Below, piece by piece: positions 2,901 to 55,662 of a DNA stretch of 64,000 bases. Each line of letters begins with the position of its first letter. The first letter of the stretch is position 1. Position numbers and translations under genes: made by a program. The stretch covers positions 10,292,001 through 10,356,000 of the forward strand of contig OZ024764.1 of NCBI GenBank assembly GCA_964016885.1, in the 5' to 3' direction. This stretch comes from Eledone cirrhosa. Its lineage: Eukaryota. The notes under the pieces were generated by a model. That model worked only from the letters and a program-made list of their open reading frames with translations, did not search any database and was not told the origin of the DNA.

Positions 2901-3209
2901 ATAATTTAAAGGCCGTGAAATCTGAAACCATACAGGTCTCTATTTTGACCCCTATCTCTTTCGATGCTCTTAGCATCACCACAGCTATTTCTGATGGTCC
3001 CTCAGCTATACCACATTTAATCTCATTGGTTGAGTCTTTGACCCTAAAACAATCAACTTTAACCCTTAGCATTGACATTACTCTATATATACTATTGTAT
3101 TTTCTCAGTAAAGGCTTTACCTCACATAACATTTACATTACTCTATATATACTATTGTATTTTCTCACTAAAGGCTTTACCTCACATAGCATTTACATTA
3201 CTCTATAAA

Positions 3210-3575
3210 TATATGTAAGTATGTAGCTATGACTGCTATTTCTAGCAGGTTTATGGCTGTCCTGTAGACGCACAATAAAAACCGGAAGTGGCAGCCATTA
3301 AAAAACTTTGGCTTAAAATCAGCCAAAAGATTTTCAATAATAGTAAAATTTTATTTTTGACAAGGACGATAACTTTTGCCTTACTTAATCGCAAAAATCG
3401 AGGCAAAAATTTTGCGGGTGTGCAGTTTACACGTTAAAAATAAACCTGCTAGAAATAGCAGTCATAGCAACTCACTTACATATATTTATATATCATATAT
3501 ATATATATATATATGATATATATGGACACTTTAGAAATAGCAGCAAATAACAGAAAGAAGGACACACACACACAC

Positions 3576-3608
<33 letters not shown>

Positions 3609-3635
3609 TATATATATATGCCCCAGCACACACAC

Positions 3636-3689
<54 letters not shown>

Positions 3690-4090
3690 GCCCCAGCATA
3701 AACACACACACATATATATATATATGCCCCAGCATGGTGTTGGTCGATCGTCTAACTAAGGCCAATAATAAAATACTTCAAAATAAATTAAACACCCCTA
3801 AATCCGAGGTTACAACTTGGATTACTTAAAAGTCAGTAAAGCTGTAAAGATTCTATATTGTAAATAGGTGGTCGCAGGTTCGAATCCAGGCAAATCCTGA
3901 GAAAAATAACAAAAAGAAGGACAATGTAAAAATAGCAGCCATAGACGAGAGGAGGACACACACAAACACATACATGTATATATATATGTGTGTGTGTATA
4001 TGTTTGGCTGCTATATATATAGCGGTCAACACACACACACTCATATATATAGACACACACACACGTACATATGTAAGTGTGTGTGTTTGG

Positions 4091-4126
<36 letters not shown>

Positions 4127-5570
4127 AACAAAAGATGGTTAAAAGAGTTCCATGTATTTTATTATGCGCATTTCAAAAACAAATATCATCATGCAATAAT
4201 ATTTGTGCTTTCATCAGATAAAACAGGAAGACATGAAATGAAGGTTAAAAAGCACTTGTGGATAGTTCAGTTTTAAATCAACATATCATATATATATATG
4301 TTATATAAATATATGTGAGTTGCTATGACTGCTATTTCTAGCAGGTTTATTTTTAGCGTGTAAACTGCACACCCGCAAAATTTTTGCCTCGATTTTTGCG
4401 ATTAAGTAAGACAAAAGTTATCGTCCTTGTCAAAAATAAAATTTTACTATTATTGAAAATCTTTTGGCTGATTTCAAGCCAAAGTTTTTTAATGGCTGCC
4501 ACTTCCGGTTTTTATTGTGCGTCTACAGGACAGCCAGAAACCTACTAGAAATAGCAGTCATAACAACACACTTATGTATATTTATATATCAGGGATTCTC
4601 AACGAAGGGTGCACGCCCCACAGGGGGCAATTTGAATGTAATAGGGGCCAATTAGAAAGTGATATAATACGACCAAACTTCCAGTTACACTTTGTTCACA
4701 TGTTATCGTGTATCTGGCAGCAGCTACGAGAAGTTTGTTTTGATCATCGCGGCATCGTAGCTTTGTTTAATTAAAGCATTTCTACTTTATATTACAGTAG
4801 TAACACTTTTACAAGACTCGGTTTATTTCTTCTATATTAAAGGGGAACATAAATCTAATTTTTAAACGTTGAGGTGGGGCATGGAGCAAAAAAAGGTTTG
4901 GAACTACTGAAGACAACAAATCATCGTTTTTATTATTGTAATATATATATATTTATTTAATTATATTTATATATGTGTACAGCAGCCAAACACTCATACA
5001 TATAAGTGTGTGTGTGTGTGTCCTTCTTTCTTATGTTCGCTGCTATTTCTAAAGTGTCCATATATGCTAGAAATAGCAGTCAAATACCAACAAACAATAC
5101 CAAATAAGGACTAAACAAACTGCACACTCGCAAAATTTTCGTCTCGATTTTTGCGTATTTTGAAGTATTTTATTATTGGCCTTAGTTAGACGATCGACCA
5201 AGGCCATATATATATGTGTGTGTGTGTGTCCTTCTTTCCGTTATTCGCTGCTATTTCTAAAGTGTCCATATATATATATATATATATATATATGATATAT
5301 AAATATATGTAAGTGAGTTGCTATGACTGCTATTTCTAGCAGGTTTATTTTTAGCGTGTAAACTGCACACCCGCAAAATTTTTGCCTCGATTTTTGCGAT
5401 TAAGTAAGACAAAAGTTATCGTCCTTGTCAAAAATAAAATTTTACTATTATTGAAAATCTTTTGGCTGATTTTAAGCCAAAGTTTTTTAATGGCTGCCAC
5501 TTCCGGTTTTTGTTGTGCGTCTACAGGACAGCCAGAAACCTGCTAGAAATAGCAGTCATAACAACACACT
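3210..5570. mobile_element. Cluster of MITE-like elements of ~250 bp (3222-3472, 4316-4567, 5313-5563); repeated at 21760-24150
   Basis: Each copy is bounded by ~30-bp inverted repeats gctatgactgctatttctagcaggttt / aaacctgctagaaatagcagtcatagc; no coding capacity. Confidence 0.7.
4155..4225 (-). ncRNA. Minimal type I hammerhead ribozyme motif
   Basis: TGTTTTAT-CTGATGA-aagcACAAATATtattgcatgatgATATTTGTtttt-GAAA-TGCGCA-TA^ATAAAATA; long stem II, palindromic stem III TGCGCA. Confidence 0.75.
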
Positions 5571-6031: not shown

Positions 6032-6864
6032 CATATATATGGAATTCAATGTCACTTGACCCAAACTCGAAAAAGCCGTCGCTGATCGTTGGGTTTATAA
6101 TTAAACTAAAGTGCTTCCAGTGTGCACCATAAGGTGATCATGATCGTTGGCGGCTGTTTACTGCATTGAGAGAGCCTAAGTCTAAAAGATATATATATAT
6201 ATAGCTGTCGAAACGGCCAGAGCTCAGCCGTCGGGGTCCAGAATATTTTCATATATATATGTGTGTGTGTGTGTGTATTCTGTGACATTTGTATTTATAA
6301 ATATATAAATAAGTATGTAATTATTTGAATAATAAAATCTGAGGTTTAAATATTTTATTTATTACCAATAACATTAAGAAAGGCATGAACACCACACCTT
6401 TTACTTCAATTTTGAAAGTAGGTTTATAAATATTAAATTTCATTAAACATTTGTAGCTGCTATGGTGGCTTGGTGGGAAATACCAGAAGCACTGGTGACC
6501 CTGGACTACGGTTCAATCCTGGGTGGGAAAAACTCACATATTAGACTTATTCAATATTTTTTTATTCTCAATTCTAGAGATAAATACATGTACATAAAGT
6601 AAATTGGTAGAGTCGTTAGAACATCAGATAGAATTCTTTGTAGTATTTTTTCCACTTCTCTGCTCTAAGTCCAAATCCCGCTGAGTTCAAATTTACTTTT
6701 CATCCATTCAGGGTTGATAACAAAGTACCATTCACGTACTAGGGTCAATTCTTCATTTTTATCTCTTTTTCACTCTCTATCCTTCTCTGGAAGAAATCTG
6801 TTTTATTCAGACCTGGAGCGGAGATGTGCTCTGCCAGGTTTTATAATGAGTATGTGTCTTACTG

Positions 6865-22603: not shown

Positions 22604-22680
<77 letters not shown>

Positions 22681-24587
22681 AGAACAAAAGATGGTTAAAA
22701 GAGTTCCATGTATTTTATTATGCGCATTTCAAAAACAAATATCATCATGCAATAATATTTGTGCTTTCATCAGATAAAACAGGAAGACATGATATGAAGG
22801 TTAAAAAACACTTGTGGATAGTTCAGTTTTAAATCAACATATCATATATATATATGTTATATAAATATATGTGAGTTGCTATGACTGCTATTTCTAGCAG
22901 GTTTATTTTTAGCGTGTAAATTGCACACCCGCAAAATTTTTGCCTCGATTTTTGCGATTAAGTAAGACAAAAGTTATCGTCCTTGTCAAAAATAAAATTT
23001 TACTATTATTGAAAATCTTTTGGCTGATTTCAAGCCAAAGTTTTTTAATGGCTGCCACTTCCGGATTTTATTGTGCGTCTACAGGACAGCCAGAAACCTA
23101 CTAGAAATAGCAGTCATAACATCACACTTATGTATATTTATATATCAGGGATTCTCAACGAAGGGTGCACGCCCCACAGGGGGCAATTTGAATGTAACAG
23201 GGGCCAATTAGAAAGTGATATAATACGACCAAACTTCCAGTTACACTTTGTTCACATGTTATCGTGTATCTGGCAGCAGCTACGAGAAGTTTGTTTTGAT
23301 CATCGCGGCATCGTAGCTTTGTTTAATTAAAGCATTTCTACTTTATATTACAGTAGTAACACTTTTACAAGACTCGGTTTATTTCTATATTAAAGGGGAA
23401 CATAAACCTAATTTTGAAACGTTGAGGTGGGGCATGGAGCAAAAAAAGGTTTGGAACTACTGAAGACAACAAATCATCGTTTTTATTATTGTAATATATA
23501 TATATTTATTTAATTATATTTATATATGTGTACAGCAGCCAAACACTCATACATATAAGTGTGTTTGTGTGTCCTTCTTTCTTATGTTCGCTGCTATTTC
23601 TAAAGTGTCCATATATGCTAGAAATAGCAGTCAAATACCAACAAACAATACCAAATAAGAAGGACTAAACAAACTGCACACTCGCAAAATTTTCGTCTCG
23701 ATTTTTGCGTATTTTGAAGTATTTTATTATTGGCCTTAGTTAGACGATCGACCAAGGCCATATATATATATGTGTGTGTGTGTGTGTATATATATATACA
23801 TATGTGTGTGTGTGTGTCCTTCTTTCTGTTATTCGCTGCTATTTCTAATGTGTCCATATATATATATATATATATGATATATAAATATATGTAAGTGAGT
23901 TGCTATGACTGCTATTTCTAGCAGGTTTATTTTTAGCGTGTAAACTGCACACCCGCAAAATTTTTGCCTCGATTTTTGCGATTAAGTAAGACAAAAGTTA
24001 TCGTCCTTGTCAAAAATAAAATTTTACTATTATTGAAAATCTTTTGGCTGATTTTAAGCCAAAGTTTTTTAATGGCTGCCACTTCCGGTTTTTATTGTGC
24101 GTCTACAGGACAGCCATAAACCTGCTAGAAATAGCAGTCATAGCAACAAACTCACATCTATTTATATATCAGGGATTCCCAACGAGGGTTACAAATCCCA
24201 CAGGGATTAATTAGAATATAATAGGGGTCAATTTGAAAGTGATATAATACGACCAAACTTCCAGTTACACTTTGTCTCCACATGTTATCGTGTATCTGGC
24301 AGCACTTACGAGAAGTTTGTTTACATTTTGAAGTTTGTTTTGATCATCGCTGCATCGTAGCTTTGTTTAATTAAAGGATTTCTATTTTATTTTACAGTAA
24401 TAACACTTTTACAAGACTCAGTTTGATTTTATATTAAAGAAGAACATAAACATATTTTAGATGTTGAGGTGGGGCGTGTAGCAAAACAGGTTGGGAACCA
24501 CTGATATATATTTATTTATTTATGTCCTTTCTGTTGTTTTCTAAATTCTAAACTCTGCATTTTTATTTCGTTCTCTGGGATTCTAGC

Positions 24588-34549: not shown

Positions 34550-34886
34550 GGAGGCACATGGCTTAGTGATTAGAGCATTCGCCTTGCAATCGAAAGGTTG
34601 TGAGTTCAATTCTCAGACCGGGTGATGTGTTGTTTCCTTGAGCAAGACACTTTATTTCACATTGCTCCAGTTTACTCAGCTGTAGAAATGACATGATAGG
34701 GACTGGGGTCCCTATCATTCCACTGCAAAGTGGTCGTGGAGGTGCCACGGCACAAAAGCACCCAGCACTCACTGTAAATGAGGTTGGTGTTAGGAAGGGC
34801 ATCCAGCTGTAGAAAATCAAGCCAGAATCAGTTCCCGTCCCACCCTTGCCAGCAGGGAAAAAGCGGACATAAAATGAAATGATGAT
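34550..34886 (+). mobile_element. CORE-like SINE, right member of an inverted pair
   Basis: GGAGGCACATGGCTTAGTG head, B-box, CORE-like centre, RTE-type tail. Confidence 0.85.
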
Positions 34887-48134: not shown

Positions 48135-48475
48135 CATCATCATCATCCTCATCATTTTACGTCCGCTTTTCCCTGCTTGCAAGGGTGGGACGGGAACTGA
48201 TTCTGGCTTGATTTCTACAGCTGGATGCCCTTCCTAACACCAACCTCATTTACAGTGAGTGCTGGGTGCTTTTTTTCCATGGCACCTCCACGACCACTTT
48301 GCAATGGAATGATATGGACCCTAGTCCCTATCATCTCATTTCTACAGCTGAGTAAACTGGAGCAATGTTAAATAAAGTGTCTTGCTCAAGGAAACAACAC
48401 ATCACCCGGTCTGAGAATTGAACTCACAACCTTTCGATTGCAAGCCCAATGCTCTAACCACTAAGCCATGTGCCT
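48134..48475 (-). mobile_element. CORE-like SINE
   Basis: Reverse complement of the same family. Confidence 0.85.
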
Positions 48476-51737: not shown

Positions 51738-51776
51738 TATGTATGAAAAAGGTAAACAGAAATAACAGGAAGAAGG

Positions 51777-51812
51777 TCTTAACGTTTCGGACGCTAGTCC
51801 TTCATCAGAAGA
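51777..51812 (-). ncRNA. Penelope-type minimal hammerhead motif
   Basis: TCTT-CTGATGA-A-GGAC-tagc-GTCC-GAAA-CGTT-AAGA; matches the CUGAnGA-A-stem-GAAACGU layout known from Penelope pLTRs. Confidence 0.65.
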
Positions 51813-51928
51813 AAGAATGAGAAATAAGATAGACTGAAGGGACGGGTGGGGTGGAATTGGAAAAAATGTCTTTAGATAAAAAAAAAATATATATGTATAT
51901 ATACACATATACAGACACATACACACAC

Positions 51929-52378: not shown

Positions 52379-52566
52379 CCGTCTTGACCACTGTCCAAGA
52401 AGGTGAACCATTTCTTGGTCTCGTCACGACTCATCGGAATGCCCATCCCTTTCAAAGACCTTCGGAGATCCTTCTCTCGGAAGCTGCGGAGCAAGATGTC
52501 GTTGTCAGAGCCTGCGATTTTGTCAAACATTGCCCTTGTTGACACAAGTACCTCGGACATTTGTAG
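52379..52566 (-). CDS. PRODH: Proline dehydrogenase, first exon visible in window (LQMSEVLVSTRAMFDK...WFTFLDSGQD-G)
   Basis: Acceptor tttccag|CTA CAA ATG, donor GG|gtgagt; 188 nt, ends in phase 2. LQxSEVL resembles the animal PRODH segment after the GRPQxL motif; joins in frame to the next exon. Confidence 0.88.
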
Positions 52567-52574
52567 CTGGAAAC

Positions 52575-53297
52575 ATAAGATACAGACATCTGTTGGATGT
52601 GTAACAGTAATATACATGAAAAGGCAAAGCATACACGAACTAAGGGAGAAATAAGGAATAAGAGGGATCAGATGCTGTTTACTCGAGAGAAGACTACGTT
52701 GGTATGGTCACGTGAAGCGCATGAAAAGTAACAGCTGTATAAAAAAGTGCAGGGCGATAAAAATAGACGGTAGCCATGGAGTAGGCAGACCCAGAAAAAC
52801 CTGGGACGACTTGATAGATTCCGACCTCACACACTTACACCTCTCCAAGACAATGTCACTGGACCGAGATCTTTGGCGCTACACAGTAATACAGAAGACC
52901 CGCCTTGCCTAAGTACAAAGCGAAACCTACAGTCAGTAGGCACCTCTTAACCAAATATACACCCCCTGTCCCACTACCCCCACCTCATCCACACCACCCC
53001 CTTTCGATGTAAAGTTATGTTGGTACCACAACATCCAGTCCGAAACAAATGAGGTCGTGTAGGTGTCACAGCAAAAAAACACACAGTCCACGCTGTAATG
53101 TGGCCGTGTAGGTAACACGGTAAAAACCTCCCAGTTCCACACTGTAAATGTGGTTAGTGTTAGGAAGGGCATCCAGCCGTAGAAAACCCGCCAGACAGTC
53201 CTATACGAGCAAGACAACCAATCTTGCCTCAAGTGGGAAAATTACCGTCCAAACTCAAGCTAGCGTGGAAGATTGACGTTAAACGATGATGATGATA
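52575..53297 (+). mobile_element. RTE 3' fragment abutting the PRODH acceptor at 52567
   Basis: RLRWYGHVKRMK...GVGRPRKTWDDLI; same UTR as the other copies. Confidence 0.8.
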
Positions 53298-53420
53298 TGT
53301 AGGAGTTGTATTTAATTTGTTGTAATATTCCGACAAACATAAATGTTTATAACTGATATAGAGCACTCAACAAGTTACTGGAGTAAATATTCCAAGATAA
53401 TAGTAAATGGAAACTATATT

Positions 53421-53485
53421 TATTTTATTATATATATTTCAAGGGCGACCTAGCCAATCTTGGTGCGCTTTCATCAGATAAAATA
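53421..53485 (-). ncRNA. Minimal type I hammerhead ribozyme motif
   Basis: TATTTTAT-CTGATGA-aagcgcaccaagattggctaggtcgccctt-GAAA-TATATA-TA^ATAAAATA: 8-bp stem I, intact core, foldable stem II, palindromic stem III. Confidence 0.75.
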
Positions 53486-53600
53486 CAAAATTTGTTTTAT
53501 AAATAATGACATACCCATGGGGATCACACCTTAACGGCGAATTTCGGACCGTAAAGGTGTGATTTCCATGGGTATGTCATTATTTATAAAACAAATTTTG

Positions 53601-53665
53601 TATTTTATCTGATGACAGCGCACCAAGATTGGCTTGGTCGCCCTTGAAATATATATAATAAAATA
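53601..53665 (+). ncRNA. Minimal type I hammerhead ribozyme motif (inverted copy)
   Basis: TATTTTAT-CTGATGA-cagcgcACCAAGattggCTTGGTcgccctt-GAAA-TATATA-TA^ATAAAATA. Confidence 0.7.
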
Positions 53666-53993
53666 AATACATATATATATATATATATATATATAATAAC
53701 TAGAAATTGATTAACATATAAATATACATGAATAATCACAGGAGATAATTTTTGCTCACGTGTAACCACGCATAGCTAGTATAAATTTCTAGTTATTATA
53801 ATATGTTCGGATTTATCTTTGAGCTTAATTTCCAGGATATATGGCGCATGCATTATGACATGACACCCATAATTTCGATTTAGATTAAATTCATTTAATT
53901 TATTTTATCTTAATTTTGGATTTAGATATATATATATATATATATATATATACGATATTAAACAAATGGAAACTATATTTATAAAACCATATT

Positions 53994-54059
53994 TATTTCG
54001 TTATATATATTTCTGGGATATCATATTAAAAATATGGTATGCCTTCCTCAGACAAAATA
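53994..54059 (-). ncRNA. Minimal type I hammerhead ribozyme motif
   Basis: TATTTTGT-CTGAGGA-aggcataccatatttttaatatgatatccca-GAAA-TATATA-TA^ACGAAATA. Stem I has a G-C pair where siblings have A-U. Confidence 0.7.
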
Positions 54060-54129
54060 CAATACATAAGCTGTTTTATAAATAATTTTGACATACCTTA
54101 TAATAATATATATATATATACATATAAAT

Positions 54130-54700
54130 ATGTATGTATGTAAAAGGTAAACAGAAATAACAACACAATCAGTACAGTATATGGAAGGTATATATTAGGT
54201 TAACGCTTGATATAGCAGGAAGAGGGTCTTAGCATTTCGGACGCTAGTCCTTCATCAGAAGAAAGAATGAGAAATAAGATAGATTGAAGGGACGGGTGGG
54301 ATGGAATTGGAAAAAAAATGTCTTTAGATAAAAATAACAGGTCCATTCATGTTGACATCTCTTGCAAAACTGTTGGTGCCGGCGTTGGGACAAACAGGAT
54401 GCCGCATGGCGGACCGTTTTGCTGAACATTTGGGGGACATATGACTCGGTTTGGATACTCCTGTCGCCCGTCATTTCTGTTCTCCTGCCCATTCTTCCCT
54501 ACATGTTTCAGTCCTGGGTGTCCTTTTACATCATGGATCACAAGCTTCGTGCACCAGGACTGAACAAAGTCTGATTCACCATCTTGGGTCCTATTCCCCT
54601 CTTGGACTCAACTCACCACCCCAATTTCTCTAATACCCCGCCCATTATCACAACCCTATATTCCTATCACTTTCTCTTGATCATTAGCAGCTTCTCTTAC
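54130..54700. mobile_element. Penelope-like element remnant: GIY-YIG endonuclease C-terminus (+, 54388-54633) with an inverted pLTR-like segment carrying a degenerate hammerhead (-, 54227-54262)
   Basis: Frame reads GQTGCRMADRFAEHLGDI*LGLDTPVARHFCSPAHS...EQSLIHHLGSYSPLGLN, typical of PLE GIY-YIG ends. 54130-54335 is similar to 51737-51885. Confidence 0.7.
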
Positions 54701-54909
54701 AACTAATACCTGCCGACTATATATGCTCACTCCACTTTTCTCTTCACTGCTCTGTATACACACATACACACCCTTAAAATAACATACTTTTGCTCATAGC
54801 TTCGTACTTACATGCACACACACTCTTTTACTCACATATACACACACATTTGTTGTGTGTGTTTGAAAAAATATCTCATCATCATCATCATCATCTTCGT
54901 TTAACGTTG

Positions 54910-54926
54910 TCTATATATATATATAA

Positions 54927-54958
<32 letters not shown>

Positions 54959-55175
54959 GTGTGTGTGTTTATATATATATATATATATACATGTGTGTGT
55001 ATGAACAAATATCTGTCTATCTATGTATTATAAACAGACATACACACATATGTGTGTATGAACATATATTTGTCTATCTATATATTATATTTAGAGCCAC
55101 ACACACACACATATATATACGTGTGTGTGTGTGTGTGTGTGTGTATGAACAAATATCTGTCTATCTATGTATTAT

Positions 55176-55209
<34 letters not shown>

Positions 55210-55450
55210 GAATAAATATTTGTCTATCTATATATTATATTTAGAGACACACACACACACATATATATACGTGTGTGGTGTGTGTGTGTATGAACAAATA
55301 TCTGTCTATCTATGTATTATACACACACATATATATATATATATATGAATAAATATTTGTCTATCTATATATTATATTTAGAGACACACACACACATATA
55401 TATACGTGTGTGTGTGTGTATGAACAAATATCTGTCTGTCTATGTATTAT

Positions 55451-55500
<50 letters not shown>

Positions 55501-55612
55501 ATATGAATAAATATTTGTCTATCTATATATTATATTTAGAGCCACACACACACATATATATACGTGTGTGTGTGTGTGTGTATGAACAAATATCTGTCTG
55601 TCTATGTATTAT

Positions 55613-55662
<50 letters not shown>

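Follow-up and report, generated by a model that had tools for sequence, protein, structure and literature searches.

Independent insertions of two Penelope-like families as the probable origin of paired hammerhead motifs and a foldback in an octopus proline dehydrogenase intron

Penelope-like elements (PLEs) of metazoans carry minimal type I hammerheads with a small palindromic helix III and a long helix II; as described by Cervera and de la Pena (2014, PMC4209133), many families are found per genome, most motifs are solo, some form opposite-strand pairs 100-700 bp apart, and cleavage is weak even as dimers. The EN+ PLEs of the Hydra clade, as described by Craig et al. (2021, PMC8557442), combine a single ORF for a reverse transcriptase (RT) and a C-terminal endonuclease with a hammerhead in their pseudo-LTRs (pLTRs), (TA)n targets, partial tandem or inverted 5'-truncated copies and a one-sided tail, and are marked by RWK, DKT, CxCx5C, CxxC and CxH motifs and by the lack of CCHH. 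The supplement of that report names Hydra-1_Obim of Octopus bimaculoides as a clade member inserted in (TA)n. Inverted 5'-truncated copies, tails and junction palindromes are described for Penelope elements (PMC3846280, PMC8557442), including the head-to-head inverted pLTRs of Adineta vaga, for which a self-priming model was put forward (Arkhipova et al. 2013, PMC3846280). The Poseidon element PAc of Anolis has two RT start sites, does not need cleavage for its insertion and lacks RNA ends at the cut, and for one Penelope hammerhead cleavage required the protein of its own element (Frangieh et al. 2024, PMC11167929). Non-LTR retrozymes are AT-rich tandem repeats of a single 150-450-nt unit with type I hammerheads able to work as dimers (Cervera and de la Pena 2020, PMC7229834; bioRxiv 10.64898/2026.07.22.740005), and reportedly derive from Penelope pLTRs (bioRxiv 10.64898/2026.07.22.740005). 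In the open-access papers searched, nothing was found on the two families described below, nor on any Penelope hammerhead regulating a host intron.

The locus lies in a 64-kb window, the whole stretch of Eledone cirrhosa DNA analysed here. Eight exons of a proline dehydrogenase gene (PRODH) were mapped within the window on the minus strand, and the upstream exons lie beyond it, the next being a 65-nt exon at G000:C25:10360631-10360695. The coding exon at 52566-52378 is 93% identical to octopus proline dehydrogenase (90-94% to octopod PRODH in tblastn), and the splice sites read from the sequence delimit, on its 5' side, a phase-0 GT-AG intron 16,064 nt long, whose acceptor AG ends at 52567, 862 nt past the downstream predicted cut. 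The region had been taken as intronic and upstream of the first visible PRODH exon, and homology bears this out; we infer from the gene structure that both hammerheads and the foldback lie within this one intron. Hammerhead-type motifs occur on both strands of these PRODH introns. The same intron contains, in antisense, a 313-aa frame resembling a non-LTR reverse transcriptase fragment (57470-58411, plus strand). A second, divergent gene of the proline dehydrogenase family is found at G000:C17:34603408-34605399 (minus strand), with 35-45% identity to the query exons.

Motifs are located here by their C3 position in the hammerhead numbering. A motif scan recovered the two minus-strand hammerheads with a shared palindromic helix III and cuts 573 nt apart that the initial annotation had described. 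The upstream motif (C3 54051) has a CTGAGGA core and a predicted cut at 54002/54001, and the downstream motif (C3 53477) has a CTGATGA core and a predicted cut at 53429/53428; both are of type I, and in each an 8-bp helix I accompanies the helix III palindrome. The foldback of about 250 nt was equally real: positions 53417-53537 pair with 53549-53669 over 121 nt at 96% complementarity, leaving an 11-nt loop. As to the claim that each strand carries a ribozyme plus its antisense, the inverted arm places a third motif on the plus strand (C3 53609), with one helix II change. In a relaxed scan, 7 hammerhead motifs were counted in the window, whereas none of 20 dinucleotide shuffles yielded any, so the motifs are not due to chance, and they are not rare within this window. 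At gathering level Rfam gave no hammerhead match in the window, only two tRNA-like ones, and at E<=10 in 52500-57500 only generic hairpin and microRNA models were present among 150 of the 181 rows. The two tRNA-like matches, at 34559-34616 (plus) and 48411-48468 (minus), are near-identical, just above the threshold, and probably represent heads of a tRNA-derived SINE.

The two minus-strand motifs agree in only 73% of their sequence and come from separate repeat families, termed A (downstream) and B (upstream). Along the PRODH strand, the upstream motif is carried by a single, 5'-truncated, 157-nt arm of a family B pLTR (53951-54107, minus), which has (TA)n on both sides and ends at the tailless end of the family. 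It is followed by a spacer (53690-53925), in which a genome search recognised a third, unrelated dispersed repeat with a small foldback between TA tracts. The foldback itself is an insertion of the older family A and consists of an inverted short arm (53549-53685, plus; C3 53609), which is antisense on the PRODH strand and stops at a TA tract, the 11-nt inversion junction (53538-53548) and a long tailed arm (53295-53537, minus; C3 53477) with a fixed 3' end near 53295. A further single pLTR copy of the A/B group was found by the motif scan at 56247-56497 (plus; C3 56304). In the downstream arm, 14 nt of the outer helix I strand of family A are deleted, and in folding this arm alone does not adopt the family A structure. 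The upstream motif retains the 8-bp helix I plus an outer extension, and has an A facing an A at the base of helix II.

Family A is abundant in the 3.0-Gb genome of the same animal. The foldback query gave 40 scored places of 1,949 candidates, with matches on both strands, and a 25-nt piece of the motif has 1,772 exact copies (control 0). An alignment of 20 copies revealed a common right end at about 53295, followed mostly by (TA)n, while the shorter left arm also stops at (TA)n. Among 39 foldback copies (one further locus, with its second arm 1.1 kb away, was excluded from the junction count) the junctions differ, the core-to-core distance takes 25 values between 93 and 134 nt, and the tail is present on one arm only in 34, on both arms in 1 and undetected in 4. 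When places were picked by the motif irrespective of any foldback, an inverted arm was present within 1.5 kb in 11 of 24 (3 of the 11 from one cluster), 6 of the initial 30 loci having been dropped as partner arms of others. In longer copies the inverted arms are 0.2-5.2 kb apart with ORF remnants between them, and the tail is on the shorter arm in some and on the longer arm in others; the family is linked to RT/GIY-YIG ORF remnants at L085-L087, L149 and L150. From the copy-specific junctions and the arms of the longer copies it follows that the hairpin is likely created afresh with each insertion. A MITE-like fixed hairpin was ruled out by the same variable junctions and by the extension of the arms into ORF sequence in longer copies. 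Across the 39 foldbacks, the divergence between arms is 4.6% within a copy versus 7.0% between copies, and a copy's own arm is the unique nearest relative in 10 and tied nearest in 7, which is a weakly positive indication that both arms may stem from one shared template. In its arrangement, the foldback matches insertions already published for these elements, which are inverted head to head and carry a single tail.

Family B is young. The 161-nt stretch 53945-54105 is 100% identical to 29 other places among the matches listed, and the 60-nt motif core has 570 exact copies in the genome (control 0). A reading of the upstream motif as a decayed copy was rejected, as it is the youngest part of the locus, 0% diverged from other copies, compared with arms 4-6% apart for family A. 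Counted by hand on one contig (C1), 40 of 77 listed family B places form 20 head-to-head pairs 73-4,396 nt apart; the same set contains one direct pair, at 3,748 nt, and no tail-to-tail pair. A full-length parent was found at L148 (G000:C3:35526793-35530767; L148:2794-6768), with a pLTR at 2794, an ORF of 749 aa at 3064-5310 and a second pLTR at 6518, the pLTRs being direct repeats 3,724 nt apart. The family B copy of the window is 99-100% identical to both of them. This pLTR pair is the natural same-strand hammerhead pair, with a spacing of about 3.7 kb. In the RT region, 40 scored copies are 98-100% identical; the L148 family is therefore very young and may be active, and the element is apparently intact. 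The family A and family B proteins share 65% identity over 645 aa, and A is the older sister family of B.

All 570 exact copies of the young subfamily share the A facing an A at the base of helix II (54044 and 54014 on the minus strand), whereas related copies (L083, L115 and L117) have A-U at this position; helix I of family B carries a compensated change relative to family A, with G-C for A-U. A mismatch at the base of helix II is expected to be harmful to a hammerhead. To judge from the copy numbers, the youngest subfamily has apparently spread with a broken first helix II pair.

The motifs had been ascribed to Penelope-like minimal hammerheads, and pLTR membership and the full-length parent confirm this: in both families the motif sits inside the pLTR. 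L148 has the layout of an EN+ PLE, namely a single ORF for RT plus a GIY-YIG-type endonuclease at the C-terminal end, between direct pLTRs, although these domains are judged from motifs and 52 homologues, and the Pfam search of 6 ORF pieces and 3 long ORFs returned no RT or GIY-YIG match. The clade is assigned by motifs as well. L148 contains RWR, DKT, YRDD, CxCx5C, CxxC and CxH; SDKT, with DKT instead of DKG, is shared by L148, L150 and L087; the linker and endonuclease end of L148 reads CNCRDRSKC, CDLC and CRH without CCHH, and the family A copy L085 reads CKCRIKSNC, CKLC and CKH. The (TA)n flanks of family A and B copies match the target of the Hydra clade, and the inverted 5'-truncated copies with a one-sided tail agree with EN+ PLEs; a target-site duplication is unreadable because the flanks are (TA)n. 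A Neptune assignment was dropped, since the CxCx5C and DKT motifs point to the Hydra clade. Both motifs would thus be pLTR hammerheads of two different, apparently unnamed Hydra-clade families.

Several features depart from the descriptions in PMC8557442. L148 reads RWR at a column where 14 of 17 aligned relatives have the RWK of the clade, its unit is 3.7 kb compared with a published length below 3 kb, and the family A tail at this locus is about 85-110 nt, whereas 30-40 nt have been published. Hydra-1_Obim differs from both families in its protein and hammerhead, as compared by eye with the supplement, and the table of that paper lists no pLTRs for it, whereas those of the families described here are clear. 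Compared with the hammerheads described in PMC4209133, helix I is longer and has an outer extension; where helix II usually closes with an extra base and G-C, family A has A-U and family B has A-A. The insertions resemble those of Adineta vaga (PMC3846280) in their head-to-head inverted pLTRs and junction palindromes, and the two fixed ends resemble those of PAc and fit its model of two RT starts (PMC11167929); in contrast to both, the two arms of the insert here consist almost entirely of pLTR, so that the hairpin is compact, at 250 nt.

The 573 nt between the predicted cuts had been proposed as a circularisable unit, which the comparison with other loci does not support: the interval is made up of three unrelated dispersed repeats of different ages. 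The spacer gave 40 scored places of 1,799 candidates; the repeat is present in 1 of 107 pLTR loci, where it does not adjoin the pLTR, and flanking hammerheads are adjacent at 0 of 5 of its own loci. A B-like copy occurs in the analysed flanks of 2 of 40 family A foldback loci, namely the window and L083 (379 nt upstream). Same-strand motif pairs within 1.5 kb were seen at 25 of 92 other loci (9/24, 8/29 and 8/39), with spacings of 305-1,443 nt, so that about a quarter of the sampled copies have a second same-strand motif close by; the likely reason is shared targeting of TA tracts. At none of these 92 loci does the 573-nt spacing recur, and the 573-nt stretch was not found as a unit elsewhere. 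It is hardly conceivable that the interval represents a non-LTR retrozyme, i.e. a non-autonomous element of short tandem repeats whose hammerheads process it into a small circular RNA: the low GC content and the same-strand type I motifs would suit it, as would the reported derivation of retrozymes from pLTRs, but no tandem array of 150-450-nt units, each with a hammerhead, is present as in the elements described in PMC7229834, the motifs differ in sequence and in flanks, and the parent elements encode their own RT and endonuclease. Joints that skip 574 nt in contigs from four read runs of one study, in which other copies of the repeats prevail, are most simply explained as chimeric fits between the two similar motifs. 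The spacer itself is a TA-flanked, asymmetric foldback without a hammerhead and could be the end of a Naiad-like, Penelope-type family.

A PRODH switch had also been suggested, in which the pre-mRNA would toggle between an active double hammerhead, cutting the intron or releasing a 573-nt circle, and a silencing hairpin. The hairpin half of this suggestion agrees with the folding, which consists of protein-free calculations. In a 731-nt minus-strand RNA, with an ensemble energy of -296.2 kcal/mol, the antisense arm pairs with the downstream ribozyme at a mean probability of 0.95, and the foldback is thus predicted to lock this ribozyme shut in the pre-mRNA. Forcing the downstream monomer costs +72.2 kcal/mol and forcing the double hammerhead +96.3 kcal/mol, and deletion of the arm leaves a cost of +16.5 kcal/mol for the double form; because of these costs a two-state switch is not predicted. 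In the PRODH pre-mRNA the arm lies ahead of the ribozyme, so the hairpin would also win kinetically. The elements from which the switch was conceived, i.e. the spacing, the strand and the shared palindromic helix III, are all real, the two motifs allow eight helix III pairs and one complete mixed helix I, and weak hammerheads can be rescued as dimers (PMC7229834 and PMC4209133). Yet both mixed sites are defective, as pair 2 of helix I between the A core and the B site is an A-C mismatch and the A-A of the B core sits at the base of its helix II, and by computation an intermolecular helix III does not come together with both helices I and II in context. Given in addition that three independent repeats make up the interval, that the upstream one is young enough to be identical to dozens of copies, and that the spacing does not recur at the 92 other loci, the switch is very improbable.

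The reading preferred here, which we hold with high confidence, is that two families likely inserted at different times into one (TA)n-rich spot, and that the foldback likely arose as a side product when the older one inserted, with a predicted locking of the ribozyme of that insertion. The side-by-side landing is likely due to chance, and the locus likely represents ordinary transposon debris, not a gene switch. The observed basis for this consists of family membership, copy numbers, the full-length parent, the copy-specific junctions, the one-sided tail and the TA flanks. In such a scenario the RT/GIY-YIG protein of the element would nick (TA)n DNA, and reverse transcription would start behind the hammerhead, at one or the other of two fixed sites, leading to tailed or tailless ends. 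One short cDNA per site, or one cDNA and a self-primed copy of it, might then be joined head to head, yielding the hairpin; two priming events fit better than a simple fold-back, because in longer copies the tailed arm may be the shorter or the longer one. The younger 157-nt piece would be a single 5'-truncated arm. During PRODH transcription the antisense arm would emerge ahead of the downstream ribozyme and pair with it as it is transcribed, while the intron would likely be spliced normally, with the hairpin as incidental double-stranded RNA.

A passive origin might still be accompanied by a real side effect. The upstream hammerhead may cut a small share of the PRODH pre-mRNA, helped by the element protein or acting in trans with its abundant sister transcripts, or a heavily edited hairpin may alter splicing of the exon 0.9 kb downstream. 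In the final fold the upstream hammerhead is free, helices I and II costing only 7.0 kcal/mol, although in the nascent RNA the arm pairs with it about half the time. Its 8-bp helix I with the outer extension and the hundreds of identical copies as potential partners would favour cutting, and the editing route would be favoured by the very high hyper-editing of octopus and the heavy editing of Penelope repeats in a lizard (PMC5625713). The hairpin is plausible as an ADAR substrate, as would be any near-perfect octopus hairpin, and editing could loosen it. Nevertheless, a side effect of either kind is quite unlikely, considering the A-A that stands in place of the A-U of related copies at the base of helix II, the low activity reported for metazoan Penelope hammerheads together with the RNA ends absent at the cut in Anolis (PMC4209133 and PMC11167929), and the occurrence of similar motifs on both strands of these introns.

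Returning to the origin by independent insertions, the consequence for the PRODH locus itself is little, and the wider point is that stacked TA-tract insertions can mimic a designed ribozyme switch, a trap which is to recur in cephalopod genomes. The value at the family level is modest: the L148 family, with its apparently intact and very young Hydra-clade element, its clear pLTRs, its two fixed ends and its hundreds of identical copies, is a good substrate for two open questions, inverted Penelope insertion and the importance of hammerheads. A more speculative idea, which we regard as rather doubtful, is that foldbacks act as a safety catch, silencing their own ribozyme and so being tolerated in sense introns, that the thousands of near-perfect Hydra-PLE hairpins may be a main fuel of octopus A-to-I hyper-editing, and that the 570-copy subfamily with its broken helix II pair may indicate that cleavage is dispensable in vivo for Penelope mobility.

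Other hammerhead families surround the locus. One with a TGCGCA helix III palindrome has two copies in the window, 22651-22850 and 4094-4294 (both minus), which are 98.5% identical, and recurs as a head-to-head pair (L122:2540-2606) higher up in the PRODH intron studied here. At least ten more, mutually unrelated, hammerhead families were seen in the flanks of other loci (L002, L006, L017, L019, L075, L093, L107, L111, L117, L162, L170 and L176), and the genome therefore seems saturated with Penelope-type hammerheads. A very abundant repeat at 51759-51885 and 54129-54390 (minus) carries a minimal hammerhead with an extra A, a helix II closed by G-C and an ACGT palindrome; the motif is intact at 51808 in the next intron, while that near 54258-54231 has changed cleavage-site bases, near 54232, and contigs of other copies of the repeat have intact letters at 54232 and 54234.
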